64,000 nt of DNA from a phage, in the NCBI GenBank assembly GCA_017003895.1, contig GCA_017003895.1_4520.1, one strand, 5' to 3'. Position 1 is the first letter of the stretch. Each line of letters opens with the position of its first letter. A program made the translations under genes and the position numbers. Below are positions 40,248 through 57,412 of the stretch, piece after piece. The notes beneath the pieces were generated by a model. That model saw nothing but the letters and a program-made list of their open reading frames with translations. It searched no databases and had not been told where the DNA came from.

Positions 40248-43200
40248 ATGGTTGACATCAAACGTAAGTTCAGGGCCGAAGATGGTCTTGATGCAGGCGG
40301 TGATAAGATAGTTAACGTTGCGCTTGCCGACCGCACAGTTGGCACCGATGGCGTGAACGTTGACTTTTTGGTGCAAGAAAACACCGTACAGAATTATGAC
40401 GATACGCGCGCGTATACAAAAGATTTTATTGTTCTTTATAATAATCGTTTTTATCAAGCTTTAAGCGATATTCCAGCTCCGGCAGGCCCTTTCTCTTTGG
40501 TTAAATGGAAGGCAACTCGTGCAGATGCAGAATGGATTACAGTTCAAGGCGGAGATTTCCAATTATCAGTAGGTAACTCTATTGCGGTTGATACTTCAGC
40601 TGGCACTGATATTAATTTCACTTTGCCTCAAAATCCTTTAGATGGCGATACAGTTATTTTGTCTGATATTGGTGGTAGAGTAGGCTATGTAAAAGTTCAA
40701 ATTACTGCAGCGGCTCAAAGTATTGTAAACTTTAGAGGACAACAGGTTCGTTCAGTTTTAATGACGCACCCAAAATCTAAAATGGTCTTCATTTTTAGCA
40801 ACCGCCTATGGCAAATGTATGTTTCTGATTACGAACGTAATGCAGTCACAGTAACTCCTGCTACGCCATATCAAGCACAACCTAATGATTTTATCATTCG
40901 ACGTTTTACATCAGCCGCTCCTATTAATATTACATTGCCTCGTAATGCTAATAATGGCGATATTATTAATTTAGTGGATTTAGACAAATTAAACCCATTA
41001 TATCACACAATTGTCAAAACTTACGATGATACAACTTCTATACGAGAAGCTGGTGTTCATGTAGCAGAAGGACGTAATTTTGCTGATGCTCTTTTTATTT
41101 TTGATGCAGCATCTAGTTTGTGGAGAGTTTGGGAAGGTGACCAGAAATCTCGTTTACGTATAGTTCGTAATGATACTGATTTACGCCCTAATGAAGAAGT
41201 TCTTGTTTTTGGAACTGATAATAATACAATCTCGACCGTAAATCTTACTTTGCCTACAGATATTTTGTCTGGCGATACTGTTAAAATATCGTTGAATTAT
41301 ATGCGTAAAGGGCAAACTGTAAAAATTAAAGCTGCTGAAGGCGATACAATTGCTAGCAGTATTTCTTTATTACAGTTCCCAAAACGTTCGGAGTATCCAC
41401 CTGATGCACAATGGGTTTCTGTTAGTGAGCTGGAATTTAATGGCGATACTTCGTATGTACCTGTACTTGAGCTAGCTTATATAGAAGATTATTCATCTGA
41501 AACAAAATATTGGGTAGTTCAACAAAACACCGTAACCGTCGAACGAGTCGATGCATCGAGCAATACAACTCGAGCTCGTTTAGGTGTTATTGCTCTTGCT
41601 TCTCAAGCGCAAGCAAATGTTGATTTAGAAAATGCTCCTGGTAAAGAACTGGCTATTACTCCGGAAACATTAGCAAATCGTACAGCAACTGAAACTCGTC
41701 GTGGTATTGCTCGTATTGCAACAACTGCACAAGTTAACCAGAATACCGATTTTGCATTCCAAGACGACTTGATTATTTCTCCTAAGAAATTGAACGAACG
41801 TACAGCAACTGAAACCCGTAGAGGTGTTGCTGAAGTTGCAACTCAGGCTGAAACTAATGCTGGAACAGATGATACCACTATTATTACTCCTAAGAAATTG
41901 GATGCCCGTCAAGGTTCTGAAGTTTTATCTGGTATTGTAAAATACACATCTACGACTGGTACTACAGCTGCTACTATTCGCGGTAATGCTGGGACTAACG
42001 TTTATAACAAAGCCGTAGATAATTTAACTATTTCTCCAAAGGCCCTTGACCAATATAAAGCTACCCCTACTCAGCAGGGTGCAGTAATTCTTGCTATTGA
42101 AAGCGAAGTTATCGCTGGCGAATCACAAGCTGGTTGGGCTAATGCTGTAGTGACCCCTGAAACTCTGCATAAGAAAACTTCTACTGATGGACGTATTGGT
42201 TTAATTGAAATTGCTACGCAAGCAGAAACTAACACTGGAACTGATTATACTAGAGCAGTAACGCCTAAGACGTTAAATGATAGGAAAGCTACGGAAGGAT
42301 TATCTGGCATAGCCGAAATTGCTACGCAAGTTGAATTTGATACTGGAACTGACGATACTCGTATCTCGTCTCCACTGAAAATTAAAACTCATTTTGATTC
42401 TTCTGACCGTACCAGTGTTAATTCTGATTCCGGACTTATTGAAGAAGGAACCTTGTGGAACCATTATACTCTTGATATTTCTAAAGCAAATGAAACACAA
42501 CGTGGTACACTTCGTGTAGCGACCCAGGCAGAATCTAATGCAGGAACTTTAGATGATGTTCTTATTACTCCTAAAAAGCTTTTAGGTACTAAGTCCACTG
42601 AAACGTCTGAAGGCGTAATTAAGGTTGCTACTCAGGCTGAAACTGTAACAGGAACTTCTGCTAATACTGCTGTATCACCTAAGAATTTAAAATGGATTGT
42701 TCAATCAGAACCATCATGGACTGCTACTACGGCAATTCGTGGATTCGTTAAAACTTCATCTGGTTCTATTACATTTGTTGGTAATGATACAGTTGGTTCA
42801 ACACAATCTTTAGAATCATATGAGAAAAATAGCTATGCGGTATCACCATATGAATTAAACCGTGTACTTGCTAACTACTTGCCGTTGAAAGCTAAAGCAG
42901 CTGATAGTAATTTGTTAGATGGTCTAGATTCTCTTCAGTTCATCCGTAGAGACATCGACCAGACGGTTAATGGTTCTTTAAGTCTTACTAAACAGACCAA
43001 CCTGAGTGCTCCTTTAGTATCTACAAGCACTGCTTCTTTTGGTTCCGAAGCATCTGTTACTCGTAGATTAACTCTTAATGATTCTAGCGGTTCCGAAATA
43101 ATTTTCACTAAAGGAACCCAATCTCTTAGTAATAAAGAGAATTTCGTTGTTAGAGCATGGGGTAATAGCGCTACAGATGGTGCCCGCGATACAGTATTTG

Positions 43201-44081
43201 AAGCTGGTGACGAAACCGGATACCATTTCTATTCTCAGCGCGCTGCTGATAATAGAGTATCATTTAATATTAATGGAACACTTTATTCAACAGGTATTGT
43301 TTCTACAAATGGATTAAATGTTACAGGTGTTTCTACCTTTACAGGGCCTATTAGTGCTACAGGCGAAATTGTTTCTAGTTCTCCTATTGCATTCAGAGCT
43401 ATTAATGGTAACTATGGTGTTATGCTTTATAATGCTGGTAACAGTTCTTATATTGCATTAACTAACTCAGGTGACCAGACCGGGACGTTTAATAACTTAC
43501 GCCCGATCACGATTAACAACGCCACAGGCTTAGTTCGTCTTGACAATGGTGTTCAAATCACAAGTGGTGCAACAATAACTACCGGTGGGTTAAATGTAAA
43601 TAACAGAATTATTTCTAACGGCGTTAAAACTGCCACTGTTTATACCGATAAACCAACAGCTTCTACTGTAGGTTTTTGGTCTATTGACATTAACGATTCT
43701 GCTGTATATAGCCAATTCCCTGGATACTGGACGCGTGATAACAAAGGTAACCGTGACCAAGAAATTAAATATCCTGGTACTTTGACTCAATTCGGCAATA
43801 GCTTAGATTCGCTTTATCAGGATTGGATTTGTTATCCTACAGGTGCAAATGGCGGTAGCATTCGATATACTCGTACCTGGCAGAAAAATAAAGATGCTTG
43901 GACTTCATTTGCAATGGTATTTGATAGTGGCAACCCACCTTCACCTAGCGATGTCGGTGCTATCCCGTCTGATAATGCTGTTATTGGAAACCTTACTATT
44001 CGAGACTTCTTACAATTAGGAAATGTGAGAATTGTTCCAGACCCGGTTAACAAAACCGTTAAATTTATATGGGTTGAATAA
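40248..44081 (+). CDS. 34: long tail fiber proximal subunit gp34
   Basis: 1277 aa; internal fibre repeats (…TPKKL…, …IATQAETN…); late promoter upstream. Confidence 0.85.
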   Translation: MVDIKRKFRAEDGLDAGGDKIVNVALADRTVGTDGVNVDFLVQENTVQNYDDTRAYTKDFIVLYNNRFYQALSDIPAPAGPFSLVKWKATRADAEWITVQGGDFQLSVGNSIAVDTSAGTDINFTLPQNPLDGDTVILSDIGGRVGYVKVQITAAAQSIVNFRGQQVRSVLMTHPKSKMVFIFSNRLWQMYVSDYERNAVTVTPATPYQAQPNDFIIRRFTSAAPINITLPRNANNGDIINLVDLDKLNPLYHTIVKTYDDTTSIREAGVHVAEGRNFADALFIFDAASSLWRVWEGDQKSRLRIVRNDTDLRPNEEVLVFGTDNNTISTVNLTLPTDILSGDTVKISLNYMRKGQTVKIKAAEGDTIASSISLLQFPKRSEYPPDAQWVSVSELEFNGDTSYVPVLELAYIEDYSSETKYWVVQQNTVTVERVDASSNTTRARLGVIALASQAQANVDLENAPGKELAITPETLANRTATETRRGIARIATTAQVNQNTDFAFQDDLIISPKKLNERTATETRRGVAEVATQAETNAGTDDTTIITPKKLDARQGSEVLSGIVKYTSTTGTTAATIRGNAGTNVYNKAVDNLTISPKALDQYKATPTQQGAVILAIESEVIAGESQAGWANAVVTPETLHKKTSTDGRIGLIEIATQAETNTGTDYTRAVTPKTLNDRKATEGLSGIAEIATQVEFDTGTDDTRISSPLKIKTHFDSSDRTSVNSDSGLIEEGTLWNHYTLDISKANETQRGTLRVATQAESNAGTLDDVLITPKKLLGTKSTETSEGVIKVATQAETVTGTSANTAVSPKNLKWIVQSEPSWTATTAIRGFVKTSSGSITFVGNDTVGSTQSLESYEKNSYAVSPYELNRVLANYLPLKAKAADSNLLDGLDSLQFIRRDIDQTVNGSLSLTKQTNLSAPLVSTSTASFGSEASVTRRLTLNDSSGSEIIFTKGTQSLSNKENFVVRAWGNSATDGARDTVFEAGDETGYHFYSQRAADNRVSFNINGTLYSTGIVSTNGLNVTGVSTFTGPISATGEIVSSSPIAFRAINGNYGVMLYNAGNSSYIALTNSGDQTGTFNNLRPITINNATGLVRLDNGVQITSGATITTGGLNVNNRIISNGVKTATVYTDKPTASTVGFWSIDINDSAVYSQFPGYWTRDNKGNRDQEIKYPGTLTQFGNSLDSLYQDWICYPTGANGGSIRYTRTWQKNKDAWTSFAMVFDSGNPPSPSDVGAIPSDNAVIGNLTIRDFLQLGNVRIVPDPVNKTVKFIWVE

Positions 44082-44089
44082 GAGGTTAT

Positions 44090-45214
44090 ATGGAAAAATT
44101 TATGGCAAGGTTTGGACAGGGATACGTCCAAACGCCGTTTTTATCGGAAAGCAATTCAGTTAGATTTAAGCTAAGTATAGCGGGCTCATGCCCGCTTTCA
44201 ACAACTAATCCGTATATTTTGTTCCAAAACGAGCCTTTAGGGTTGCAGTCTTTTGGTATTGGACTAAATGTTAGGGTGATAAATCCGGAAAATGGAACTA
44301 TAGTTGATAGTAAATTATACAATTTTGCGCCTACAAATAATGCAACTTCAGCTGCATTTATTTCGTTTGTTAATACGTACGCAGATAATTTCATTTTCGC
44401 ATTTATTTCTAATAACAAATTTAATTTGCCACCAGAAATAATTGAATGGTTTAAAGCTGCTGGGAGTTCAGTTATACCGTCAATTGAAGTTGCTAGTCTT
44501 GTTGATATTTCATATTCGGCGTTTTATGTTTCAGGTAAAAATACTATTGCATTAGAACACATAAAATACAGTAATAAGAAAACAATTTCTGATTACGCAA
44601 CTCCATTAGATATTGTATATGACTCTATTGCTGATATAGGTGCTACCGGCTATCCTAGACGTACATATGAAGCTCTAGAAACGTTTTTATCTCCTGTTGG
44701 AGGAACTAACAATGAAATAAAAAGGATGCCTACATCATCCCTTGTTACTCCTATCGCAAACTATGGATTAAAGCCTACAGATTTTCTCTATTTGAAATTT
44801 CAATTAATGGCTGATGAAGAATTATTAGAGGAAGGAACCACAAGACTTTCAATTCGTTTCTTTAAGTCTCCATCTAGCTCTCCTATATCATCTAAAGATA
44901 TAAACTTTGATGGAACTGCCCGGGAGTGGAAGCTATATGAAGAATACGTTGAAATACCAGCTGAAGCTGATGGCTTTACAGTATATTGTTACCGTACGGC
45001 CTCAGCCGGTCAAGGTGGACTAAGAAATGTTATTTTCACTGAAGTATCATGTAACGGAAGTATAGCAAAACCCGCTGAGTTTGGTATAAACGGTATTCGT
45101 GTTAATTACATTGATGAATCGTTAACAGGTAATGATATAATGGACTTGCCTACTCAGTTATCTAACGACACAGGTAAGGTATTTGGGCAGGAATTTAAAG
45201 AGTACACAGAATAA
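44090..45214 (+). CDS. 35: long tail fiber hinge protein gp35
   Basis: 374 aa (T4 gp35 ~372); synteny 34-35-36-37. Confidence 0.75.
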   Translation: MEKFMARFGQGYVQTPFLSESNSVRFKLSIAGSCPLSTTNPYILFQNEPLGLQSFGIGLNVRVINPENGTIVDSKLYNFAPTNNATSAAFISFVNTYADNFIFAFISNNKFNLPPEIIEWFKAAGSSVIPSIEVASLVDISYSAFYVSGKNTIALEHIKYSNKKTISDYATPLDIVYDSIADIGATGYPRRTYEALETFLSPVGGTNNEIKRMPTSSLVTPIANYGLKPTDFLYLKFQLMADEELLEEGTTRLSIRFFKSPSSSPISSKDINFDGTAREWKLYEEYVEIPAEADGFTVYCYRTASAGQGGLRNVIFTEVSCNGSIAKPAEFGINGIRVNYIDESLTGNDIMDLPTQLSNDTGKVFGQEFKEYTE

Positions 45215-45215
45215 A

Positions 45216-45235
45216 GGAGACTTCGGTCTCCTTTT
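45216..45235 (+). terminator. rho-independent terminator after gene 35
   Basis: GGAGAC ttcg GTCTCC followed by TTTT, 2 nt after the gene 35 stop. Confidence 0.65.
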
Positions 45236-45239
45236 CGCG

Positions 45240-45247
45240 TATAAATA
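45240..45247 (+). promoter_or_regulatory. late promoter (TATAAATA) for gene 36/37
   Basis: Exact TATAAATA 26 nt upstream of the gene 36 ATG. Confidence 0.6.
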
Positions 45248-45273
45248 CTTTAATATTAATAAGGAGACACGAA

Positions 45274-45930
45274 ATGGCCGATTTAAAAGCCGGAAGTACA
45301 GTTGGTGGTTCCGTCATATGGCATCAAGGCAATTTTCCTTTAATGCCAGCTGGCGATGACATCCTATATAAAACATTTAAATTATACACCGAATATAACA
45401 AGCCAAAAGCGGCTGATAACGATTTCGTATCTAAAGCAAATGGTGGGACATATCTCAAAAAGGTAATCTTTAACGAAGGTATTGCAGTCAAAACAGCAGA
45501 TGACCAAACGAATGGTATTTTTTCTGGTGGTGGTGACGCCGCGACATTCGACCAAACAAACATGGATATTGTTTCGTGGTACGGTGTTGGGTTTAAATCA
45601 TCTCAAGGTACAGGTGAAAGAACTGTTGTAATTGATACTCACACCGGTAATATAAGTTCTAAAGGTGTTATTGAAGCATCTCAATTCAGAGCCACAACGT
45701 TAGCACCTTTAAATAATTACGACCTTACTCGCAAAGATTATGTTGATAGTCAAATAAATACAGTTAATGCTAATGCAAACAGTCGTGTACTCCGTTCAGG
45801 AGATACGATGACCGGCGCGCTAACCGCCCCAAACTTTTTCTCACAGAATCCTGCATCTCAACCCTCGCATGTTCCACGATTTGACCAAATTGTTATTAAG
45901 GATTCTGTTCAAGATTTCGGCTATTATTAA
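45274..45930 (+). CDS. 36: long tail fiber distal connector gp36
   Basis: 218 aa (T4 gp36 ~221); late promoter at 45240-45247. Confidence 0.75.
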   Translation: MADLKAGSTVGGSVIWHQGNFPLMPAGDDILYKTFKLYTEYNKPKAADNDFVSKANGGTYLKKVIFNEGIAVKTADDQTNGIFSGGGDAATFDQTNMDIVSWYGVGFKSSQGTGERTVVIDTHTGNISSKGVIEASQFRATTLAPLNNYDLTRKDYVDSQINTVNANANSRVLRSGDTMTGALTAPNFFSQNPASQPSHVPRFDQIVIKDSVQDFGYY

Positions 45931-45938
45931 GAGGACTT

Positions 45939-48900
45939 ATGGCTACTTTAAAACAAATACAATTTAAAAGAAGCAAAACTGCAGGAGCACGTCCTGCCGC
46001 TTCAGTATTAGCCGAAGGTGAATTGGCTATAAACTTAAAAGACCGTGTGCTTTTTACTAAAGATGACCAAGGAAATATTATTGATCTGGGTTTTGCTAAA
46101 GGTGGTAGCATTGACGGGAATGTTATTCATACTGGCAATTATAACCAAACTGGCGATTATACTTTAAATGGCACCTTCACTCAAATTGGCGATTTCAATC
46201 TCAAGGGTATTGCTCGCGTAACTCGTGATATTATTGCTGCGGGTCAGATAATGACCCATGGTGGCGAACTTATTACAAAAAGTTCAGGTACAGCACATGT
46301 TCGTTTTCATGATTCAGCTGACCGTGAACGTGGAATCATTTTTTCTCCTGCTAATGATGGATTAACTACACAAGTTCTTAATATTAGAGTTCAAGATTAC
46401 AAAGCTGGTTCAGAAAGCACTTTCGCTTTTAATGGAAATGGTTTGTTTTCTTCACCAGAAGTTTTTGGGTGGAAATCTGTATCAACTCCGGTAATTTATA
46501 CCAATAAAGTTATCACCAATAAAAAAGTTAAAGATGATTATGACATCTATTCGATGGCAGACAATGTTCCATTGTCTGAAAGCACTACTGCTATTAATCA
46601 TCTCCGTGTTATGCGCAATGCTGTAGGCGCTGGTGTATTCCATGAAGTTAAAGATAATGATGGAATAACTTGGTATACCGGAGATGGCTTAGACACTTAT
46701 CTTTGGTCGTTTACCTGGTCCGGTGGATTGAAAGCAGGCCATTCTATTTCTGTTGGTACTCCTGGTGGCAATAAAGGATACTCTGAATTAGGGACTGCTT
46801 CAATTTCTCTTGGTGATAATGATACTGGATTTAAATGGCATCAGGATGGATATTTCCATACAGTAAACAACGGAACAAGAACTTTCATTTACGGTCCTGC
46901 GGAAACACAAAGCCTTAGAAAAATGGTTATGGGTTATTCTCCGGATGGTGTTCTTATGACAACGCCACCGACAGAAAACTATGCTTTGGCTACTGTTGTT
47001 ACTTACCATGATAATAATGCATACGGCGATGGTCAAACACTTTTAGGATATTATCAAGGTGGTAATTACCACCACTATTTCCGTGGTAAAGGCACTACAA
47101 ATATTAACACTGCAGGCGGATTGTTAGTTACTCCAGGCAATATTGACGTTATTGGTGGTTCTGTTAATATCGATGGTAGAAATAATTCTTCTACGCTGAT
47201 GTTTAGAGGTAACACAACAGGATACAGCTCAGTTGATAATATGGATATTAAAGTTTGGGGTAATACGTTTGTTGATCCAAGCGGAGGTATCCGTAAAAAC
47301 ATTATGGAAATTTCTGATGCAACTAGCTGGATGAGCTATATTCAAAGACTTACTACTGGCGAAGTAGAAATGAACGTTAATGGTTCATTTGAATCATCTG
47401 GTGTTACTGCTGGAGATAGAGGAGTTCACACAACAGGTGAAATTTCATCTGGAGCAGTGAATGCTCTTCGTATTTGGAACGCAGATTATGGAGCCATTTT
47501 TAGACGTTCAGAAGGAAGTCTTCATATTATTCCAACTGCTTATGGCGAAGGCAAAGATGGCGATATCGGTCCACTTCGCCCATTTAGTATGGCTTTAGAT
47601 ACTGGTAAAGTTACTATTCCAGATTTACAATCAAGTTACAATACGTTCGCTGCTAACGGTTATATTAAATTTGTTGGTCACGGAGCGGGTGCCGGCGGTT
47701 ATGACATTCAATATGCTCAAGCGGCTCCTATTTTCCAGGAAATTGATGATGATGCTGTAAGCAAATATTATCCTATTGTTAAACAGAAGTTTTTAAACGG
47801 TAAATCTGTTTGGTCTTTAGGTACCGAAATTGAATCAGGTACATTCGTTATTCATCATCTGAAAGAAGATGGTTCACAAGGCCATACATCAAGATTTAAT
47901 ATGGATGGTACAGTTAATTTCCCTGATAATGTTCTGGTCGGTGGTGGTGAAGCTGCTATTGCTCGTAATGGTAATATTTTCTCGGATATTTGGAAAACGT
48001 TTACTTCTGCAGGCGACGTAACTAATATTCGCGATGCAATAGCTACTCGTGTTGCCAAAGAAGGTGATACGATGACCGGCACTCTTTGGATTAATAAAGA
48101 TGCTGCTGGAATAGTTCTTAATCCTCCTTTGGCCAGTGATTCATCATTTATTCGTTCCGATACGGCCGGGGTCAATAATTGGTATATTGGTAAAGGCGGT
48201 GCCGACAACGGTCTAGGTTTTTACAGTTATGTTACACAAGGCGGTGTATATATAACAAATAACGGAGAAATATCACTTTCTCCTCAAGGCCAAGGAACAT
48301 TTAATTTTAATAGAGACCGCCTCCATATAAACGGTACACAATGGACCGCACACCAGGGAGGTGGTTGGGGAAATCAATGGAATCAAGAAGCACCGGTATT
48401 TGTAGATTTTGGTAATGTTGGTAATGATAGTTATTATCCTATTATTAAAGGAAAATCCGGTATTACTAATGAAGGATACATATCTGGTGTAGATTTTGGT
48501 ATGCGACGCATTACTAATACATGGGCACAAGGTATTATTCGTGTAGGTAATCAGGAAAACGGTTACGACCCACAAGCTGTATATGAATTCCATCATAACG
48601 GTACTTTTTATGCTCCAAGCTTACTTAAGAGCAGTAGAGTATCAGCTGGTGGTGGTGACCCTGCATGGGGCGGGCCGTGTATTGTACTTGGAGATAACGA
48701 CACCGGTTTGCTTTGGGAAAACGATGGTATTTTCAACGCATATGCAAACGGCCAAGGTGTGTTTAGTTTTAGACCTGGTTTAGCTCAGACATTCGGTGAT
48801 GTTAACTTCCACTGTAATGCAGGTATGTATGTTCGTGATAACATTGATGTTAACGACGTTTATATTCGTTCTGATATTCGTTGTAAGTCGGAAATTAAGC

Positions 48901-49190
48901 TTATTAAGAACGCTCAAGAGAAATCTAAACTATTGGGCGGTTATACTTATCTGCTTAAAAACTCTGTTACAGACGAAGTTAAACCGTCCGCAGGTTTAAT
49001 TGCTCAGGAAGTTCAAGAAGTATTACCTGAACTTGTTTCTGAAGATAAAGAGACCGGACTGCTTCGTTTGAACTATAACGGTATTATTGGTTTAAATATA
49101 GCTACAATCAACGAGCATACTGACGAAATCAAGGAATTGAAATCTGAAATTGCTGAATTGAAAGCATTAATTAAATCATTGATAAAATAA
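45939..49190 (+). CDS. 37: long tail fiber distal subunit gp37 with C-terminal chaperone-like domain
   Basis: 1083 aa; Gly-rich fibre body; C-terminal ~110 aa (…SDIRCKSEIKLIKN…LIAQEVQEVLPELV…) with terminal coiled-coil resembles a self-cleaving intramolecular chaperone. Confidence 0.85.
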   Translation: MATLKQIQFKRSKTAGARPAASVLAEGELAINLKDRVLFTKDDQGNIIDLGFAKGGSIDGNVIHTGNYNQTGDYTLNGTFTQIGDFNLKGIARVTRDIIAAGQIMTHGGELITKSSGTAHVRFHDSADRERGIIFSPANDGLTTQVLNIRVQDYKAGSESTFAFNGNGLFSSPEVFGWKSVSTPVIYTNKVITNKKVKDDYDIYSMADNVPLSESTTAINHLRVMRNAVGAGVFHEVKDNDGITWYTGDGLDTYLWSFTWSGGLKAGHSISVGTPGGNKGYSELGTASISLGDNDTGFKWHQDGYFHTVNNGTRTFIYGPAETQSLRKMVMGYSPDGVLMTTPPTENYALATVVTYHDNNAYGDGQTLLGYYQGGNYHHYFRGKGTTNINTAGGLLVTPGNIDVIGGSVNIDGRNNSSTLMFRGNTTGYSSVDNMDIKVWGNTFVDPSGGIRKNIMEISDATSWMSYIQRLTTGEVEMNVNGSFESSGVTAGDRGVHTTGEISSGAVNALRIWNADYGAIFRRSEGSLHIIPTAYGEGKDGDIGPLRPFSMALDTGKVTIPDLQSSYNTFAANGYIKFVGHGAGAGGYDIQYAQAAPIFQEIDDDAVSKYYPIVKQKFLNGKSVWSLGTEIESGTFVIHHLKEDGSQGHTSRFNMDGTVNFPDNVLVGGGEAAIARNGNIFSDIWKTFTSAGDVTNIRDAIATRVAKEGDTMTGTLWINKDAAGIVLNPPLASDSSFIRSDTAGVNNWYIGKGGADNGLGFYSYVTQGGVYITNNGEISLSPQGQGTFNFNRDRLHINGTQWTAHQGGGWGNQWNQEAPVFVDFGNVGNDSYYPIIKGKSGITNEGYISGVDFGMRRITNTWAQGIIRVGNQENGYDPQAVYEFHHNGTFYAPSLLKSSRVSAGGGDPAWGGPCIVLGDNDTGLLWENDGIFNAYANGQGVFSFRPGLAQTFGDVNFHCNAGMYVRDNIDVNDVYIRSDIRCKSEIKLIKNAQEKSKLLGGYTYLLKNSVTDEVKPSAGLIAQEVQEVLPELVSEDKETGLLRLNYNGIIGLNIATINEHTDEIKELKSEIAELKALIKSLIK

Positions 49191-49195
49191 TAAAA

Positions 49196-49209
49196 GGGCC
49201 TTCGGGCCC
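49196..49209 (+). promoter_or_regulatory. stem-loop between genes 37 and 38 (no U-tract)
   Basis: GGGCC ttcg GGCCC directly followed by the gene 38 RBS (tGGAGGtttatATG); no T-run, so not a classic terminator. Confidence 0.4.
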
Positions 49210-49220
49210 TGGAGGTTTAT

Positions 49221-50000
49221 ATGGCAGTAGTAGGAATTCCTGGTTGGATTGGGACTTCAGCCGTCGCTGAAACCGGGCAAAGATGGATGTCGGCCGCTTC
49301 TAGAGAATTGCGTCTTGGTAACCCATCCTGGATGTCACAATTTGCTGGACGCTCAAGAGAAATTATTCATACACTTGGAGCAGACCATAACTTCAATGGT
49401 CAATGGTTCCGAGATAGATGTTTTGAGGCAGGTAGTGCACCTATAGTGTTTAATATCACCGGAAATTTGGTATCATATAGTAAAGATGTTCCATTATTCT
49501 TTATGTATGGCGATACGCCAAATGAATATGTTACTTTGAATATTCATGGTGGGGTTCATATGTGGGGACGAGGTGGTAACGGTACTGTAAACGGAAACCC
49601 AGGCACAAATGGCGGTGATGTAATCCAAAATGATATCGGCGGAAGACTTCGTATTTGGAACTATGGCGTTATTGCATCAGGTGGTGGTGGTGGTGGTGCA
49701 GTGTCATTACAGAATAGCTGGGCGCCAAATGCTACAGCAGGTGGCGGTGGCGGCAGACCATTTGGCCTCGGCGGCGGTGGCGTTAATTGGCCTGGCGGTA
49801 ATGCTAGTTATGACGCCCCGGGCGGTGCCGGTTACACTTCCCAATTCGGCGGAGGCAATGGCGGTGATGCTGGAGGTCGGGGCGGAGATGGATGGGGTAA
49901 TCACTTATCTAGATCTGGCGGTGGTGCTCCTGGCAGAGCAGTATTCGGAAGTTCACCGTCATGGGGTGCTACAGGCACAATCTACGGCTCCTGGATTTAA
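49221..50000 (+). CDS. 38: tail fiber adhesin gp38 with glycine-rich motifs
   Basis: 259 aa; conserved N-terminal part and C-terminal poly-Gly blocks (GGGGGGA…[14 protein letters not shown]…) as in T2-type gp38. Confidence 0.75.
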
Positions 50001-50018
50001 ACGATAATACCTCTCAAT

Positions 50019-50026
50019 TATAAATA
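50019..50026 (+). promoter_or_regulatory. late promoter (TATAAATA) for holin t
   Basis: Exact TATAAATA 19 nt upstream of the preferred t start codon. Confidence 0.55.
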
Positions 50027-50045
50027 TTGATAAATGGGAGGTAAT

Positions 50046-50705
50046 ATGGCAGCACCAAAAGTATCATTTTCGCCTAGTGATATTTTATTTGGGTTGCTAG
50101 ACCGCATTTTCAAAGATAACGCCTCTGGAAATATTCTTATTTCAAGAGTTGCTGTTGTAGTTCTTTTGTTCCTAATGGCACTAATATGGTACAAAGGGAA
50201 TATTTTTATGGATTATTACGTGAGGTCGAAATATGATACTTACACAGAAGTAATTCAAAAAGAAAGAAATACACGATTTGAATCTGCGGCTTTAGAACAA
50301 CTACAAATAGTCCATGTCACATCAAGGGCGGATTTTAGTTCGGTGTATTCTTTCAGACCTAAAAATCTAAATTATTTCGTCGACCTTATTGCGTATGAAG
50401 GTAAGTTACCTAGCACAGTAACTGAAAAATCTATGGGAGGATTTCCTGTTGATAAAACGACAGCAGAATATTCGGTCCATTTAAGTGGACTTCACTTTAC
50501 TTCTAAAACAGATTTTGCTTTCTTACCAACCAAATCAAAAACTCCGGAACTGGCGTATATGTATAGTTGTCCTTACTTCAATTTAGATAACATATATGCG
50601 GGAACTGTTTCTATGTATTGGTATAAGGGGTCGGATGTGTTAAATGAAGAACGCTTGGCTGCAATATGCAACCAAGCAGCAAGGATATTAGGGCGGGCTA
50701 AATAA
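50046..50705 (+). CDS. t: holin T
   Basis: 219 aa from the second ATG (MAAPKVSFSPSDILFG…; GGGAGG RBS at 50035-50040); single N-terminal TM segment and large periplasmic domain. Confidence 0.85.
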   Translation: MAAPKVSFSPSDILFGLLDRIFKDNASGNILISRVAVVVLLFLMALIWYKGNIFMDYYVRSKYDTYTEVIQKERNTRFESAALEQLQIVHVTSRADFSSVYSFRPKNLNYFVDLIAYEGKLPSTVTEKSMGGFPVDKTTAEYSVHLSGLHFTSKTDFAFLPTKSKTPELAYMYSCPYFNLDNIYAGTVSMYWYKGSDVLNEERLAAICNQAARILGRAK

Positions 50706-50978
50706 TTAGTTGTTAGAATACATCGTCAAATGGCGATAAATATTTTCAAAACCTTCATTGAATTCACTAATCAGTGTTTTCTTTTCTTCGGCAGTTAAAT
50801 TTGTAATTAGTTTTCTGAACGAATTCTGATTTAGCTGCCGACCATCTTTTTTAATTCCAATCTCATTCAAGAATCCGATGAAATTTGCTCGGTCTTCAAC
50901 AATATCTTCCCTAGAGAATTTAATCAAAATAGAAGCAATAGTAATAATTTCACGTACGATTTCAATGTCTTTATTCAT
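50706..50978 (-). CDS. asiA: anti-sigma70 protein AsiA
   Basis: 90 aa; MNKDIEIVREIITIASILIKFSREDIVEDRANFIGFLNEIG… near-identical to T4 AsiA as recalled. Confidence 0.85.
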   Translation of the reverse strand: MNKDIEIVREIITIASILIKFSREDIVEDRANFIGFLNEIGIKKDGRQLNQNSFRKLITNLTAEEKKTLISEFNEGFENIYRHLTMYSNN

Positions 50979-51012
50979 AACGTTTTATTCATTCCACTTA
51001 GTTGATATGGAT

Positions 51013-51042
51013 ATAGTACCATTATCAGTGTTGATTGTAAAC
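51013..51042 (-). promoter_or_regulatory. early promoter for asiA
   Basis: GTTTAC (rc 51037-51042), 18 nt, TACTAT (rc 51013-51018). Confidence 0.45.
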
Positions 51043-51240
51043 ATCTTTTTCTACACTTTTAACGTAATTGGTGTAGTCTTCCTGTTCGTACGAGTGTAAG
51101 GCCAAGAACTGAACTAATAGTTCATTATAGACTAAAGCCTCACGCTCACGTTCGGCCTCTACTACGTTCTGAAGATTATGACTCATATCATTCCTTATAA
51201 CTATCAATATAGTCTTGTATGTCGAAGAATGACATTTCAT
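51025..51240 (-). CDS. hypothetical small protein
   Basis: 71 aa ORF; likely starts at an internal Met at 51186 (53 aa), which abuts the upstream stop. Confidence 0.4.
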   Translation of the reverse strand: MKCHSSTYKTILIVIRNDMSHNLQNVVEAEREREALVYNELLVQFLALHSYEQEDYTNYVKSVEKDVYNQH

Positions 51241-51562
51241 ATTCTAGGGCATTAAGAGCCCGTTCTTCAGTGTAGTCGGAACCAAAGACGATAGTGATTT
51301 CACCAGGCTTCATGTGATTGAAATCGACACTAAAAGGAATACGAGAACATACTTCATCTGCCATATCTGCAACAACACTACGATACACTTCTCGGTTAAC
51401 CTGATAAAGCTCTGCGAGTTCTTCGCAACGAATAACAAGTTCAGTGGCAGGATTTTCTTTGATTTTAGTAAGCATAGTCTTTACCCTTATGTTTTTGTTT
51501 GCGTTTAGATTGAAGTTCTGATTTCTTCTTGTCCTTATGGACAGAAGCCTTATTGAAATCAT
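51188..51562 (-). CDS. hypothetical acidic protein (possible Arn-like DNA mimic)
   Basis: 124 aa track ORF, or 95 aa from internal Met MLTKIKENPATE…; strongly acidic; sits in the asiA-motA small-gene block where T4 carries arn. Confidence 0.45.
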   Translation of the reverse strand: MISIRLLSIRTRRNQNFNLNANKNIRVKTMLTKIKENPATELVIRCEELAELYQVNREVYRSVVADMADEVCSRIPFSVDFNHMKPGEITIVFGSDYTEERALNALEYEMSFFDIQDYIDSYKE

Positions 51563-51774
51563 GTTTTGCTACAAGATTGTTCATAATGATTTATAACCTC
51601 ATTTAAACATTTATCAGTAAAAGAAAACTTTTTAGCCACAGAACATTCGATAATGTGTTCTTTCAAATCTTTAGAGTCAGTATAACCCATCTCAGTAATA
51701 AAGTGGCGAATTAAAGCTTTATTCTTATCATTAACAGAATTAAAATAATCTGCTTTAGAATCAATTATTCTCAT
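51559..51774 (-). CDS. hypothetical protein
   Basis: 71 aa ORF, ATGA overlap with the downstream gene. Confidence 0.45.
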   Translation of the reverse strand: MRIIDSKADYFNSVNDKNKALIRHFITEMGYTDSKDLKEHIIECSVAKKFSFTDKCLNEVINHYEQSCSKT

Positions 51775-52042
51775 CGTCTAATTTCCTTAATTGATATTGC
51801 AACGAGCTAATAATTTCTTCGTTAATTTTAATATACATGTCGCGCAAGAAAGGTTTTAACCCTTCACGAATAATTGCTAATGTATCACCTTTACATAAAT
51901 TAACCAAATAGGGATGGTCTAAAGCATCCCAACCAGGCTGATTAGCATACATACCATAGTTTTCTTCCATCATATGATTAAGACGTTTTATATCTTGGAT
52001 ACGTGATTCAATAGCATCTTTCTGGAGTTGTTTAATATTCAT
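51761..52042 (-). CDS. hypothetical protein
   Basis: 93 aa ORF. Confidence 0.45.
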   Translation of the reverse strand: MNIKQLQKDAIESRIQDIKRLNHMMEENYGMYANQPGWDALDHPYLVNLCKGDTLAIIREGLKPFLRDMYIKINEEIISSLQYQLRKLDDENN

Positions 52043-52503
52043 TAATAAAGGTCCTCTGAATAAAGTTCTTTCTCACTTCCACCACGTTCAATACGTACCT
52101 GTCCAGCATATGTTGCAATAATCATTGCTTCTTCACGCGTCCAGTAATTAGAGTATTGGTCAATAAAACCTTGGTCGTCACCACAAACTTGTTGCGAGAC
52201 TAATTGAGGACCAACTATATCAAGTACTTCAGCCATATCTTTAGAGTAATGACGAACTCCAGGAATAATCAGAGTTCCGCCGCTCTTCAATTTAAACCTA
52301 TTAGCTGCACATACTATAACACGTTGAACTTTTTGGTCATTGTTCCAATAGCACGTTTGCCAACAGATTTCAGGAACTTCATTCATTATATCATCAGCAG
52401 AATAATTATAACCGTAGGACTGGAATTTTTCTGCTAGACTTTCAGGAGTCTCACGAGACAAGGCCAAATCTAATAGCTCTAAACGTTCTTTAAATGATTT
52501 CAT
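52042..52503 (-). CDS. hypothetical protein
   Basis: 153 aa ORF, ATGA overlaps at both ends. Confidence 0.5.
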
Positions 52504-52829
52504 TTAAACCATTCCTTAATACGTTGCCAAATAGATTTTTGTGCTTGTTTATTTACACCAATCGAACGAATAACCGGTTGTGACTGCTGATATTCTTTAT
52601 AATCTTCTTTATAGATTTCGTAAGCTGCATCAACAAATGAACTGATCGCTGACATGTAGTTTTTACGAAGGCCAAATGGCGCGTCATTATTTTCACGAAT
52701 AACTGTATATTGGCCTGCTTTAATCTTTACAATTGTCCCTAAATAAGCCCCGTGGTACCAAATATCCCATCCTTCCTGAGTAGGTTCTGCACATTTACGA
52801 AGTTCGTTAATAATATTCAGCTTATTCAT
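52500..52829 (-). CDS. hypothetical protein (motA-proximal)
   Basis: 109 aa ORF. Confidence 0.5.
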
Positions 52830-52839
52830 TATGTATTCC

Positions 52840-53472
52840 TCACAGTACGTTAGTTACAAGGGTAATGATTTCTTTGGACACATTAGGGAAGTCAATGTAA
52901 GTATATTTACCACCGATCTTAATCTTAACATCATTTTCAAGAGAAGTAAACAGCTTTGATTCAGTTTCTGACATGTTGTATGCAAAGATTCTAAGAGCGC
53001 CATCTCGTCGAATTTCAATTTGGCGAATACCTAGAACTCGTTTTGCAAATCTAACTTCCAAGTTACTACGGTTTTCACCAATTTCCTTAACTTCAACTTT
53101 ATCTTTAATATTTTCAAAAACAAAGTTTGCTAGTTCATGCATTTCAGGAGTAACTCCACGTGCTTTTCTAGTGTTACGTTTCTGAAGAAGTTCTGGAGCA
53201 TTTTCTTGGGCAAAGAGGTCTGCAGCTTTTTGGATAATATCCATTGCTTCGCCGGTTGCCACAAGTCCATCACCAGATTTTTCGACTAAACCTTTCTTAA
53301 TCAATACACCAATGTTAGAGTTAACAACTGATGCATTGTATTCTGCTTCCAGAGCTTCACGGACATTGGCAGCAGTGGTGAAGTTGTTCTTAATGATATA
53401 AACCATTATTGCAGCAGTTTTTTCATTCAGAGCGTTTTCAGAAGCTTTGATGATGTAAGTAACTTTAGACAT
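52840..53472 (-). CDS. motA: middle-transcription activator MotA
   Basis: 210 aa from internal Met MSKVTYIIKAS… (T4 MotA 211 aa); the track ORF's extra 30 aa are probably not translated; early promoter at 53509-53537. Confidence 0.8.
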   Translation of the reverse strand: MSKVTYIIKASENALNEKTAAIMVYIIKNNFTTAANVREALEAEYNASVVNSNIGVLIKKGLVEKSGDGLVATGEAMDIIQKAADLFAQENAPELLQKRNTRKARGVTPEMHELANFVFENIKDKVEVKEIGENRSNLEVRFAKRVLGIRQIEIRRDGALRIFAYNMSETESKLFTSLENDVKIKIGGKYTYIDFPNVSKEIITLVTNVL

Positions 53473-53508
53473 TTTATTTCTCCAAATTAGTATTTGTTTT
53501 GATAGGTC

Positions 53509-53537
53509 TATAATATCATGTTTGAAGCACATGTAAA
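53509..53537 (-). promoter_or_regulatory. early promoter for motA
   Basis: GTTTAC (rc 53532-53537), 17 nt, TATTAT (rc 53509-53514); 37 nt upstream of the MSKV start. Confidence 0.5.
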
Positions 53538-53544
53538 CTGTTTT

Positions 53545-53579
53545 GTGAGAAAAAATGCACAAAAGGGAGCTTCGGCTCC
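53545..53579 (-). terminator. rho-independent terminator after gene 52
   Basis: GGGAGC ttcg GCTCCC (53564-53579), T-run on the minus strand. Confidence 0.65.
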
Positions 53580-53656
53580 CTAATCATGATTGTCCAACCA
53601 ATACAGCCAAATCACTAGTGCAGCTATTGCACCGAGAAATCCTAAGGCTAGGGCAC

Positions 53657-54982
53657 TCAAAGTGCCTCCAAGTCTTTAGTGTACTCTGTCACAACATCAG
53701 TAGACTTCCAATACTCATTTTCTTCTTTCTTAGCTTTAGCTTCTTCTGCTAGTTTACGTGCTTCATCGGAAGTGATATGGAAGATGTTAAGTCCTACCAG
53801 TTTATCGACATGTTCTTTATACATTTCGATTTGTGCTAGCTCTTCAGTCAAAGCTTTACGTGTCTTGCCCTGAATCACAATTTCGCCACTGATAACTTTT
53901 TTGATGAAGTGTGCCTTAGCAAAAGCAAGTTTAAATGCTTTTTCAGATTCAAGGATTTTGTTATCAATACGTTTCTGAACGTAAGTCTTACGGACTTCAA
54001 CAAAATCTTTGATTAAGTCCACTACGTTATCGTAGACCGCTAATTTACCCTTTTCATTAATCACTGTGATGTTTTGTGAACGACGTTCGATGAGACTAAA
54101 ATCTTTCATGATTTTTTCATGACGTAGCTCTTCATCGTCAGGAAGCGAGTACTCTTTACGGAACTTCACCTTAAATCCAAAGCCGTGTTCACCACAATCA
54201 TCTTCCCATGAGATTAGACCTTTGTCTTCCAACGGGTCAAGAACCTTACTCACATACGTTTCACGGTCGAATTTATATGGGATTTCAGTTATCTGCATTT
54301 GAGTGCGAGATGTGAACTTATATGTTCCGTGAATCTCATAACGCCCATCAACTTCATGCACTTCACCACGGAATTCCGGGAATTCAACTTTTGGTTTAGT
54401 GACATTTTTACCTTGAAGAGCTTGTAATACAGCCTTTTTGACCGATTTAAAACTATGAGGCAGAATATTTGTTGCGTAACCGGTTGCAATACCAGAGACG
54501 CCATTCAAAAGAACTGTCGGAATAATAGGAAGATAGAATTTTGGTGGAACGTGTTCTTTATCTTCATGTGCTGGAGCATATTCAGTATCTTTATATACGT
54601 TATAGAAATTTTTACTTACACGAGCAAAAATATAACGAGATGCTGCAGCCTTTTGGACTGTTCTAGAACCAAAGTTGCCTTGGCCATCTAACAGTGGATA
54701 GTTGTTATTCCATGTGTTAGCCATCAATGCACCTGCATCTTGTGCAGAAGATTCACCATGGTGATAACCTAAATCTGCAACACCTCCTGCAATTGACGCA
54801 AGTTTATGAAATTTTTCTTTATTACCACGAGCCAAATCTAATGCACGATGAACCACAAAACGTTGAACCGGCTTAAATCCATCAATCATGTTCGGGATTG
54901 CACGGTTTTCAACGGTGTACATCGCATATGCTAAGGCTTCGTTATCAATAATACTTTTTAGATTACGAGAATTCAATTGCAT
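53657..54982 (-). CDS. 52: DNA topoisomerase II medium subunit gp52
   Basis: 441 aa; GyrA-like catalytic region; MQLNSRNLKSIIDNEALAYAMYTVENRAIPNMIDGFKPVQRF… as in T4 gp52. Confidence 0.9.
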   Translation of the reverse strand: MQLNSRNLKSIIDNEALAYAMYTVENRAIPNMIDGFKPVQRFVVHRALDLARGNKEKFHKLASIAGGVADLGYHHGESSAQDAGALMANTWNNNYPLLDGQGNFGSRTVQKAAASRYIFARVSKNFYNVYKDTEYAPAHEDKEHVPPKFYLPIIPTVLLNGVSGIATGYATNILPHSFKSVKKAVLQALQGKNVTKPKVEFPEFRGEVHEVDGRYEIHGTYKFTSRTQMQITEIPYKFDRETYVSKVLDPLEDKGLISWEDDCGEHGFGFKVKFRKEYSLPDDEELRHEKIMKDFSLIERRSQNITVINEKGKLAVYDNVVDLIKDFVEVRKTYVQKRIDNKILESEKAFKLAFAKAHFIKKVISGEIVIQGKTRKALTEELAQIEMYKEHVDKLVGLNIFHITSDEARKLAEEAKAKKEENEYWKSTDVVTEYTKDLEAL

Positions 54983-54986
54983 ATTT

Positions 54987-55127
54987 TCACCATATTAATG
55001 AACGAATATCCATTATAACATCTGAAATGAAAAGCACTACTTGGATTAGCCCAAACATCACACCGTAGTACAGAACCGTAAGCAGCAACAAGAGCCCGAA
55101 GGCTCCTGCTAAGATTTTCTTAATCAT
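54987..55127 (-). CDS. hydrophobic micro-protein, 46 aa
   Basis: Hand-translated: MIKKILAGAFGLLLLLTVLYYGVMFGLIQVVLFISDVIMDIRSLIW; single TM helix; start overlaps upstream stop (TAATG). Confidence 0.35.
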   Translation of the reverse strand: MIKKILAGAFGLLLLLTVLYYGVMFGLIQVVLFISDVIMDIRSLIW

Positions 55128-55273
55128 TACTCGCCTTTTAACACGTTAAGAAGAGCTAAGACCGCTAAGGTACCTTGTGATATGGCCTGTTGAAATACTG
55201 TTGTTTCGCCTGTAACTAAAGTGTTAACGAATAAAAACGACCAACACAGCAATGCAATAATCCATGCTACCAT
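55127..55273 (-). CDS. hydrophobic micro-protein, 48 aa (position and size of T4 ac)
   Basis: Hand-translated: MVAWIIALLCWSFLFVNTLVTGETTVFQQAISQGTLAVLALLNVLKGE. Confidence 0.35.
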   Translation of the reverse strand: MVAWIIALLCWSFLFVNTLVTGETTVFQQAISQGTLAVLALLNVLKGE

Positions 55274-55284
55274 TTTAATTACCT

Positions 55285-55318
55285 CAAAAATAAATTAAAG
55301 GCCTAACTTAATAGGCCT
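55285..55318 (-). terminator. rho-independent terminator after ndd
   Basis: AGGCCT aacttaat AGGCCT stem-loop followed on the minus strand by a T-rich tract. Confidence 0.5.
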
Positions 55319-55325
55319 GTATAAA

Positions 55326-55772
55326 TTAATAACTCTGCAGAATGAATTTGAAATTATCTGCCAGAAGACGGTTCATTTCAGTGAGTGTTTGATATTCTGA
55401 TGTATGGTTGCGAGTGAATGCCAGAGCCAATTGACCTTTACCATAACCAGTGGTCAGTGGTTTCATGTTCTTAGCTGCAACAAAGATTACATCATATTCA
55501 ATATTGTTAGTGCCCATGGTACGGGCTAGTTGCGAACGGCCTTGACGAATGTGAGAAAGAATTGCATCCAACCCTTGTTTAGAACGTTGACGTCCTACAA
55601 AGAATCGTGCTGCTACTTGTCGCCAATCAGATGAACCTTTAACGAAGAAGTAAAAACCTTCACGAGAACGAAACTCTTTAGAAACTTCAGAACCGTATTC
55701 ACCATTACGAACTACTGCAACAACTTCACCGCCAACTGCCAGAAGGTCTTTACGAGTTAAATATTTGGACAT
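55326..55772 (-). CDS. ndd: nucleoid disruption protein Ndd
   Basis: 148 aa; …[31 protein letters not shown]…[40 protein letters not shown] matches T4 Ndd as recalled. Confidence 0.8.
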
Positions 55773-55816
55773 GCTAATTTCCTCAATTGATTAATGTTTT
55801 TGTAATCCATGAGAGC

Positions 55817-55846
55817 ATTATACTCTGCTCTCAAGAGTTTGTACAA
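55817..55846 (-). promoter_or_regulatory. early promoter for ndd
   Basis: TTGTAC (rc 55841-55846), 18 nt, TATAAT (rc 55817-55822). Confidence 0.45.
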
Positions 55847-55848
55847 TT

Positions 55849-56049
55849 TTATTCGGCCATATCAGAACGTTCAAAAAGCTCTTCAACAGTTAAACATTCA
55901 GTGTCATCCTCAATAAAGAATCGGGTCCAACACGTTGGGGCGATGCAGTTATGAGTTTGTCCAGCTATAGAAGCTACACGAATAAGCTGCTGTCCATTAT
56001 TCAGGACAAATTTTTCACCAATTTCAACATCTTTAAAAAGCTTAGCCAT
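55849..56049 (-). CDS. hypothetical protein
   Basis: 66 aa; early promoter at 56078-56107. Confidence 0.45.
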   Translation of the reverse strand: MAKLFKDVEIGEKFVLNNGQQLIRVASIAGQTHNCIAPTCWTRFFIEDDTECLTVEELFERSDMAE

Positions 56050-56077
56050 TTTGTGTTCCTCATGTTTCAGTAGGACT

Positions 56078-56107
56078 ACTATACCATAATCCTACTGTGT
56101 TGTAAAC
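56078..56107 (-). promoter_or_regulatory. early promoter (hairpin-embedded) for the ORF starting at 56049
   Basis: GTTTAC (rc 56102-56107), 18 nt, TATAGT (rc 56078-56083); -10 inside inverted repeat agtagga…tcctact (56069-56096). Confidence 0.45.
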
Positions 56108-56299
56108 AATTAAATTACATTAAAATATGTTAAAGCCAACCATGTTCCAGTGAACGAACATGCAATGTAAAAAACCGTATCACAAAATGTTCTTAGTACA
56201 ATAAGAAGTGCATTTTTCATAAGTACCTCAATGCAATTGAAAATATTATACAAATCATAGGGATACTAAGCAACCATATTCCGATCCACATTTTAGAGC

Positions 56300-56563
56300 T
56301 CATATCTCAACTTCCACGAGTTCCATATATCCTTTGTTGATAACCTCTTTAAGGTCTTTAGAAAGAATGACATTAAAATGGTCATTCATATGTCCATTAA
56401 CCAGACGAGTTATTTCGGCTTCAGATGACATATAAGGCACGTCCGAGTCCCAATGAGATAGTCCCAAATGGGTATAAATCATCCCTTCGTCGTCTGCAGT
56501 GTTGTACATTGAAACAAATTCGCCTGTTACTTTATGTTTTGCGTAGAAAAATTTAAATTTCAT
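56300..56563 (-). CDS. hypothetical protein
   Basis: 87 aa; early promoter at 56590-56619. Confidence 0.45.
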   Translation of the reverse strand: MKFKFFYAKHKVTGEFVSMYNTADDEGMIYTHLGLSHWDSDVPYMSSEAEITRLVNGHMNDHFNVILSKDLKEVINKGYMELVEVEI

Positions 56564-56589
56564 AATGTTATCCTCTTTTAGATAGGACT

Positions 56590-56619
56590 ACTATATCATA
56601 GTCCTACTTAGTTGTAAAC
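56590..56619 (-). promoter_or_regulatory. early promoter (hairpin-embedded) for the ORF starting at 56563
   Basis: GTTTAC (rc 56614-56619), 18 nt, TATAGT (rc 56590-56595); overlaps inverted repeat taggacta…tagtccta. Confidence 0.45.
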
Positions 56620-56631
56620 ACTTTTATGAAA

Positions 56632-57189: not shown

Positions 57190-57412
57190 AGATACCTCTG
57201 ATGTGTAGTTCGCCAAAATAAATGCGGTCACCTTCTTCAAGATATTCTGCATCTACCGGTGGGATTTCAATAACAACTTCGTCGCATTCTAACCAGCCGT
57301 AGTGTGCATCACCAGGATGTTTTACCAATTTAGCACAATAAACTGATTTACACTTATGATGACCACGAAGATTAGCAATTTTGGATTCTGATACGTCAAA
57401 TGGATGAATCAT
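57125..57412 (-). CDS. hypothetical protein (denB.1 position)
   Basis: 95 aa; AGGGG RBS; 3' end overlaps the denB-like start. Confidence 0.4.
   Translation of the reverse strand: MIHPFDVSESKIANLRGHHKCKSVYCAKLVKHPGDAHYGWLECDEVVIEIPPVDAEYLEEGDRIYFGELHIRGIYGKDELGTVETEESSDIYPVE

Follow-up and report, generated by a model that had tools for sequence, protein, structure and literature searches.

The present analysis concerns the distal end of the long tail fibre encoded in a stretch of 64,000 nucleotides (nt) of phage DNA (NCBI GenBank assembly GCA_017003895.1, contig GCA_017003895.1_4520.1; hereafter the window), and more precisely the end of gene 37, gene 38 and the stem-loop at their junction. 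This locus is very probably the receptor-recognising fibre end of a Mosigvirus-type T-even phage, built on the plan of T2 and S16. The gp37 protein would be made as a precursor of 1083 amino acids (aa), the last 106 residues of which would act as an intramolecular chaperone of the Peptidase_S74 type, nucleating trimerisation of the fibre and then removing itself by autoproteolysis, through Ser978 and Lys983, between Arg977 and Ser978. This removal would uncover the DVYIR tip of the gp37 trimer, on which a single gp38 would dock via its N-terminal domain (Trp9, Trp22, Trp37). The glycine-rich motifs of gp38 would form polyglycine-II helices stacked in a rigid sandwich, from which the variable segments lying between them would project as distal receptor-binding loops. 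Genes 36, 37 and 38 would be co-transcribed from a late promoter at 45240, and the C(UUCG)G hairpin between genes 37 and 38 would be a conserved RNA element, just 5' of an exposed Shine-Dalgarno sequence, rather than a mask of the ribosome-binding site (RBS).

The adhesin gp38 and its probable receptor

Over residues 47-259, gp38 matched the Pfam family GP38 adhesin (PF05268, E-value (E) 2.4e-83, profile positions 1-218 of 218), and over residues 1-42 the family Gp38_N (PF21721, E 7.7e-21). In line with this, it aligned with the solved structures of the PP01 gp38 receptor domain (sfGFP fusion, 9v85, E 1.7e-73; PMC12892980) and, over residues 8-259, of S16 gp38 (6f45_D, E 8e-49), and it was collinear with T2 gp38 over the full length, with 49% identity (E 2e-49). 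An earlier reading of this DNA (the original prediction) had proposed a T2-type adhesin, and this assignment stands, including in the direct comparison with T4. The alternative, in which gp38 would be an assembly chaperone of the T4 type, not kept on the fibre, and the gp37 tip itself would bind the receptor, has almost no credibility: several records of close relatives do label gp38 'long tail fiber assembly chaperone/catalyst', but these labels are inherited from T4 gene numbering, as the T4 record itself states, the direct BLASTP comparison rejects a T4-type identity, the 183-aa T4 gp38 showing no similarity (best E 0.97 over 14 residues) and itself matching no Pfam family, and the T4 gp37 tail consists of fibre repeats and a collar domain, not of an S74 chaperone.

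The whole gp38 protein was 99.6% identical to that of TH12 and 98.5-98.8% identical to those of AlbertHofmann/Bas47 and AugustSocin/Bas38, the substitutions relative to the gp38 of OmpF-linked relatives (see below) being S24T, A54E/T, S72G and R220W. Its organisation was read from an alignment of 17 gp38 adhesins of Tequatro-, Mosig-, Dhaka-, Gelderland- and Karamvirus phages, T2 and an S16-like phage among them. The N-terminal attachment domain and the beta-helix part were conserved, as were the blocks at residues 113-120, 134-159, 174-184, 212-218 and 237-246, between which lie four segments of low conservation (see the table). Trp22 and Trp37 were kept in nearly all of the 17 adhesins, CW742 having other residues there, and CGG4-1 gp38 also lacks a tryptophan at the first position, equivalent to Trp9. 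In S16, the three conserved tryptophans fit three pockets of the gp37 trimer (PMC6851490). Glycine accounted for 35% of residues 116-259 vs 11% of residues 1-115, and G+C climbed to 55-62% across the glycine-rich half of gene 38, from a background of about 35-40%. The collinear alignment with 9v85 and 6f45_D across all glycine motifs suggests that this half adopts the polyglycine-II sandwich fold.

The alternation of glycine motifs with hypervariable segments is the architecture of the family (Trojet, 2011; PMC3157838). The gp38 proteins of T2, T6, Ox2, K3 and PP01 (Riede/Drexler/Henning; Trojet, 2011) indeed share with the present one the five glycine-rich motifs and the four hypervariable segments. 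By contrast, the variable segments themselves differ, and so do the receptors, which are FadL for T2, Tsx for T6, OmpA for Ox2 and K3, and OmpC for PP01, vs OmpF as predicted here. For S16, a single gp38 has been described on the end of the gp37 trimer, with receptor binding proposed to occur in the distal variable loops (Dunne/Leiman; PMC6851490), and in PP01 cross-linking and mutagenesis put the OmpC contacts in the distal variable loops (PMC12892980). The original prediction, that host range is probably set by the loops between the glycine blocks of gp38, corresponds to this published family model, with which the pattern of conserved and variable positions in the 17 sequences agrees.

The primary receptor is most likely the E. 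coli porin OmpF, since phages with experimental links to OmpF carry the same receptor-binding half or one almost the same, and the core of the lipopolysaccharide (LPS) probably adds to recognition. Residues 116-259 were 100% identical in FL31 and TH12, 99.3% in Bas47 and Bas38, and 98.6% in CEV1. Bas47 was shown to target OmpF, with complementation, and to require the LPS core too (PMC8594841); Bas38, Bas47 and CEV1 were assigned to OmpF in K-12 and O157:H7 screens (bioRxiv 10.64898/2026.07.23.740414); and FL31, FL33 and FL34 were grouped as OmpF/TolC-dependent (PMC12032242). Some points should nevertheless be set against this reading. The sole receptor-domain difference from Bas38 and Bas47 is R220W, Arg being present here and Trp there, although CEV1, TH12 and FL31 share the Arg. 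FL31 itself showed no more than a one-log drop on ompF and tolC mutants, under the threshold of that study (PMC12032242), a result which leaves room for a partial dependence on OmpF or for redundancy with LPS. Both the receptor and the cleavage of gp37 described below are, moreover, read across from homologues.

The adhesins of FL31 and CEV1 (loci L020 and L004 of our comparison) combine the same receptor-binding half with a different N-terminal domain (about 80% identity; positions 49221-49565 vs 49566-49997 here), which goes with a different gp37 tip and chaperone. Such mosaic adhesins place a recombination joint within the conserved middle of gene 38, and the pattern is an instance of an already known modular exchange. 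Two further observations concern the glycine-rich half of the gene. It is overlapped in another frame by an open reading frame (ORF) of 125 aa (49630-50007, + strand), probably an artefact of stop-poor, GGN-rich sequence. In the RB33 record (locus L013, 901-1341), gene 38 is cut to 146 aa and some 390 nt separate it from t, which suggests a frameshift or a sequencing error in that half.

The C-terminal chaperone of gp37

The gp37 protein carries SDIRCKSEIKLIKNAQEKSKLLGGYTYLL, LIAQEVQEVLPELV and a heptad-patterned tail TDEIKELKSEIAELKALIKSLIK; the sequence features quoted in the original prediction were all found where it had placed them. On their basis, a C-terminal segment of about 110 aa had been likened to the self-cleaving intramolecular chaperones of phage fibres, and profile searches confirmed the likeness. 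Residues 978-1033 matched Peptidase_S74 / chaperone of endosialidase (PF13884) with E 8.6e-12 and 45.6 bits vs a cut-off of 22, over profile positions 1-57 of 58, and the last 175 residues aligned with S16 gp37 (PDB 6F45, 6f45_A) through the final residue (E 3.6e-30). From Ser978 onwards, the domain comprises 106 aa, in keeping with the size originally given, and reaches the stop codon, that is, the extreme C-terminus of the fibre protein. Seven divergent T2-type gp37 tails were combined into a profile which, when matched against solved structures, found S16 gp37 (4e-29), the MYRF autoprocessing domain (1.1e-10), the tail fibre 8jov (5.9e-9) and 3gud, the released chaperone of the GA-1 neck appendage (5e-5), residue 1 of which is a Ser aligned to Ser978.

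Ser978, the first residue of the domain, and Lys983, five positions further on (SDIRCK), were invariant in 17 T2-type gp37 tails; the motif aligns to SDRRIK in S16, SDERHK in 3gud (at residue 1) and (A)DLRAK in MYRF. A catalytic Ser/Lys dyad has been described in such domains (Schwarzer, 2007; Schulz, 2010; as cited in PMC7917993 and PMC7289586). The longer motif (V/I)Y(I/V)R-S-D-x-R-x-K was kept in nearly all of the 17 T2-type gp37 and was not found in T4 gp37. S16 gp37 is reported to autocleave at DLNVS^SDRRIKK, to shed 113 aa and thereby to uncover the surface on which gp38 docks (PMC7917993, citing Dunne, 2018), and the equivalent sequence is DVYIR^SDIRCK here and DVYIR^SDGRLK in the fPS phages (PMC7917993). 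By analogy, mature gp37 would consist of residues 1-977, next to a freed chaperone of 106 aa. The chaperone ends in a helix with a 3-4 hydrophobic spacing (I, L, I, L, L/I, L) over the final 23 or so residues, the positions of which gave weak profile matches to the GCN4 and kinesin coiled coils and aligned with the C-terminal helix of S16 gp37; such a repeat is consistent with a terminal helical bundle.

The (gp37)3-gp38 tip of S16 (PDB 6F45; Dunne et al., 2018, in PMC6851490) has many counterparts at the present locus: the same order 37-38-t, a self-cleaving C-terminal chaperone on gp37, whose cleavage is here predicted, and a gp38 with a three-Trp attachment domain, a beta-helix and, as predicted here, a polyglycine-II sandwich. 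The two differ in their variable loops (identity to the gp38 of the S16-like phage CGG4-1 is about 52-55%), in their host, Salmonella vs E. coli, and in the residue preceding the cleaved Ser, which is Ser in S16 (DLNVS^S) and Arg here (DVYIR^S). In Bas38, Bas47 and TH12, both the gp37 chaperone and the hairpin at the junction are identical or nearly so. The endosialidase-type chaperones in general (PF13884; K1F endoNF, GA-1 3GUD, T5 pb1, MYRF) share the S-D-x-R-x-K start, the Ser/Lys dyad, a G-(L/I)-IAQE core, the terminal helix and the C-terminal place on a trimeric fibre, but beyond the T-even group the similarity becomes distant (MYRF 1.1e-10, 3gud 5e-5, T5 pb1 0.5).

Further upstream in gp37, residues 453-550 (47295-47588) match Gp34_trimer (PF21446, E 1.2e-6, 29.4 bits vs a cut-off of 27), so that this domain is common to the proximal and distal half-fibres.

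The stem-loop at the 37/38 junction

A C(UUCG)G hairpin starts 5 nt past the gp37 stop, a UAA followed by a second in-frame UAA. Its GGGCC-UUCG-GGCCC core occupies 49196-49209, or 6 bp (49195-49210) counting the flanking A-U pair; it folds at -12.3 kcal/mol and makes up 66% of the ensemble, and the pattern SSSSCTTCGGSSSS has a chance expectation of 0.00 in the window. A stem-loop was present at the same junction in 19 of the 19 related phages examined. In an alignment of 14 phages including T4, 95.6% of cells were paired, pair 18-25 being GC in six phages and CG in five; the pairing and covariation scores lay above every shuffle, and all five measures lay above every slid register. What counts against a special RNA element is the fold energy, which is not exceptional (dinucleotide-shuffle z of -1.2 in a 36-nt context and 0.04 in 81 nt), and the support for the hairpin is therefore comparative, not thermodynamic. 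A scan of positions 44000-51000 against Rfam at a permissive E-value gave no match at the hairpin, its sole match being a miRNA model at 50775-50848, due to chance (E 0.14, 21 bits vs 60).

With regard to its role, the hairpin is most likely a generic T-even intercistronic stem-loop which stabilises or delimits the mRNA, and it may modestly attenuate downstream expression; judged from the sequence, this role would rank ahead of that of a leaky or antisense terminator, and an RBS mask would come last. Counting stems of 5 bp or more, the window indeed contains 14 C(UUCG)G hairpins (1873-63943), mostly at gene junctions, so that the 37/38 hairpin belongs to a generic T-even class. Others lie at 45213-45234 (+ strand, between genes 35 and 36), 53564-53581 (+) and 57433-57448 (-). 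Some have U-runs after the stem, in the manner of a terminator, and others directly precede a Shine-Dalgarno sequence; like the 37/38 hairpin, the one at 5554-5571 (+) does so, with GGAGATAAAAATG after its stem.

A different arrangement is known at the same junction in T4, where gene 38 has a split initiation region (Nivinskas et al., 1999; reviewed in PMC3014915). T4 also has a C(UUCG)G stem-loop (GAGGGGC-UUCG-GCCCUUC), located between the Shine-Dalgarno sequence (GGAG, 5' of the stem) and the AUG, where it shortens the spacer from 22 to 5 nt (PMC3014915). By contrast, here and in all T2-type phages compared, the hairpin precedes a Shine-Dalgarno sequence with normal spacing; since the order is hairpin, Shine-Dalgarno, ATG, with a spacing that is already 5 nt, the T4 mechanism cannot apply. 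The flanks of the hairpin differ as well, being a fibre-repeat tip and a chaperone gp38 in T4, and an S74 chaperone and an adhesin gp38 in the T2-type phages. That the stem-loop persisted while non-homologous coding sequences took the place of those on either side leads us to propose, as a tentative idea to which we give a rather low probability, that it is a functionally selected junction element, which might set a 3:1 output of gp37 and gp38 in T2-type phages, the split RBS of T4 then being a derived re-use. If so, this output could be set by partial 3'-end formation, by differential mRNA decay or by an interplay with ribosomes terminating on gene 37, 5 nt upstream.

It is unlikely, but worth weighing, that the hairpin acts as a terminator, either a leaky one on the + strand after gene 37, or one on the - strand directed against early antisense transcription from asiA/motA through t and 38. 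On the - strand, a terminator scan indeed caught the AGGGCCCGAAGGCCCT stem followed by TTTATTATTT (fold z -2.1), the homologous hairpin of phage WFK is annotated 'putative transcriptional terminator', and U-runs occur after many of the 14 C(UUCG)G hairpins. The + strand, by contrast, has GGAGGUUUAU after the stem in place of a U-tract, and since gene 38 lacks a promoter of its own (see below), strong + strand termination would starve the phage of gp38. As for the - strand, its U-rich tail is not conserved, T4 having TCTCCTTATGC and both G9062 and RB14 TTGTTGTTAG, the UUCG loop belongs to the + strand RNA, and a different terminator-like site lies closer to asiA (50678-50652).

The original prediction had suggested another role, in which the hairpin would sit directly on the gene 38 RBS and might tune the 37:38 expression ratio. 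Its position (49196-49209) and the lack of a + strand U-tract were exact, but its placement on the RBS was not, as the GGAGG lies one base 3' of the GGGCC/GGCCC stem. Repression of gp38 translation in this way is accordingly quite improbable, even though a reduced gp38 output would make sense with one gp38 per three gp37 chains (PMC6851490): the stem ends at 49209/49210, and neither the Shine-Dalgarno sequence nor the AUG is paired in the minimum-free-energy or the centroid structure. In all T2-type relatives, likewise, the Shine-Dalgarno sequence follows the stem on its 3' side at a distance of 1-3 nt, and the equivalent hairpin of T4 enhances gene 38 translation (PMC3014915). Sequestration of the Shine-Dalgarno sequence was rejected from the coordinates and the predicted folds; by inspection of the sequence, CCUUC (49199-49203) could pair with GGAGG were the main stem melted, a pairing on paper only.

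Genomic setting and significance

The order 37-38-t was identical at 19 related loci, gene 38 lying directly after gene 37 and ahead of holin t. The backbone of the window is that of a Mosigvirus: positions 50001-64000 were 97.9% identical to Bas47, and the fibre genes 96-97% identical to those of the Mosigvirus phages WFK and Bas47 (gene 37 at the DNA level). The module formed by the gp37 tip and gp38 (48339-50000) was 97.1% identical to that of TH12 and 95.7% identical to that of AugustSocin, which is a Tequatrovirus; the latter similarity is consistent with an exchange of this module between genera.

From the standpoint of transcription, the motif TATAAATA, of the T4 late-promoter consensus type (quoted in PMC3014915), occurs on the + strand within 39-52 kb only at 40206 (before gene 34), 45240 (before gene 36) and 50019 (before t). 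As none lies between genes 37 and 38, a separate gene 38 promoter was rejected, and the 45240 motif probably starts a shared 36-37-38 message, co-transcription being deduced from the motif positions. Sigma-70-like matches in the region numbered 37 vs a shuffle expectation of 26 +/- 5, about two standard deviations above it.

Two side observations concern the neighbouring genes. Residues 58-131 of gp35 match PF15711 ILEI (interleukin-like EMT inducer / FAM3 fold; 30.2 bits vs a cut-off of 27, E 6.5e-7). Within the 3' end of t, just downstream of asiA, a terminator-like hairpin of 12 bp followed by TTCTTCATTT (50652-50678, - strand) likely ends the early asiA transcript.

Table. Features of the tail-fibre locus (nucleotide positions in the window unless given as residues of gp38).
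Feature	Position	Strand	Basis
gp34	40248-44081	+	ORF list and profile search
gp35	44090-45214	+	ORF list and profile search
Late-promoter-like motif TATAAATA, upstream of gene 36	45240-45247	+	Motif scan
gp36	45274-45930	+	ORF list and profile search
Gene 37, long tail fibre distal subunit precursor, 1083 aa	45939-49190	+	ORF; annotation of relatives
Predicted autocleavage site Arg977/Ser978, DVYIR^SDIRCK	48867-48872	+	Alignment to S16 and fPS phages
C-terminal intramolecular chaperone of gp37, aa 978-1083, 106 aa	48870-49187	+	PF13884, S16 gp37 alignment
Peptidase_S74 core, aa 978-1033	48870-49037	+	Pfam PF13884
Heptad-patterned terminal helix of chaperone, NEHTDEIKELKSEIAELKALIKSLIK	49110-49187	+	Hydrophobic spacing, coiled-coil matches
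C(UUCG)G stem-loop A-GGGCC-UUCG-GGCCC-U	49195-49210	+	Fold and conservation
Shine-Dalgarno GGAGG of gene 38, 5 nt before ATG (49221)	49211-49215	+	Read from sequence
Gene 38, T2/S16-type tail-fibre adhesin, 259 aa	49221-50000	+	Pfam, PDB, T2 comparison
gp38 N-terminal attachment domain, aa 1-42, Trp9, Trp22, Trp37	49221-49346	+	PF21721
gp38 receptor-binding (specificity) domain, aa 116-259	49566-49997	+	Alignment to 9v85, 6f45_D
Glycine-rich motif WGRGGNG	gp38 aa 115-121		17-adhesin alignment
Variable segment 1, aa 121-133	49581-49619	+	Low conservation, 17 adhesins
Glycine-rich motif SGGGGGG (SGGGGGGA 153-160)	gp38 aa 153-159		17-adhesin alignment
Variable segment 2, aa 160-173	49698-49739	+	Low conservation, 17 adhesins
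Glycine-rich motif GGGGGRPFG (block to 187)	gp38 aa 174-182		17-adhesin alignment
Variable segment 3, aa 185-211	49773-49853	+	Low conservation, 17 adhesins
Glycine-rich motif GGNGGDAG (block 210-222)	gp38 aa 211-218		17-adhesin alignment
Variable segment 4, aa 219-236, includes Arg220	49875-49928	+	Low conservation, 17 adhesins
Glycine-rich motif PGRAV (block 232-241)	gp38 aa 237-241		17-adhesin alignment
Holin t	50034-50705	+	ORF list and profile search
asiA, convergent	50706-50978	-	ORF list and profile search

As a whole, the module is already known, a textbook fibre tip of the T2/S16 type with near-identical published relatives, and it leaves the understanding of T-even fibres unchanged. 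It should be noted that many records of close relatives still name gp38 'assembly chaperone/catalyst' or 'hypothetical protein', while its sequence points to a determinant of host range. The value of the present findings thus lies in annotation and in prediction: because characterised phages carry an identical receptor-binding half, the use of OmpF would be predictable from the sequence, which may be useful for choosing or engineering phages.

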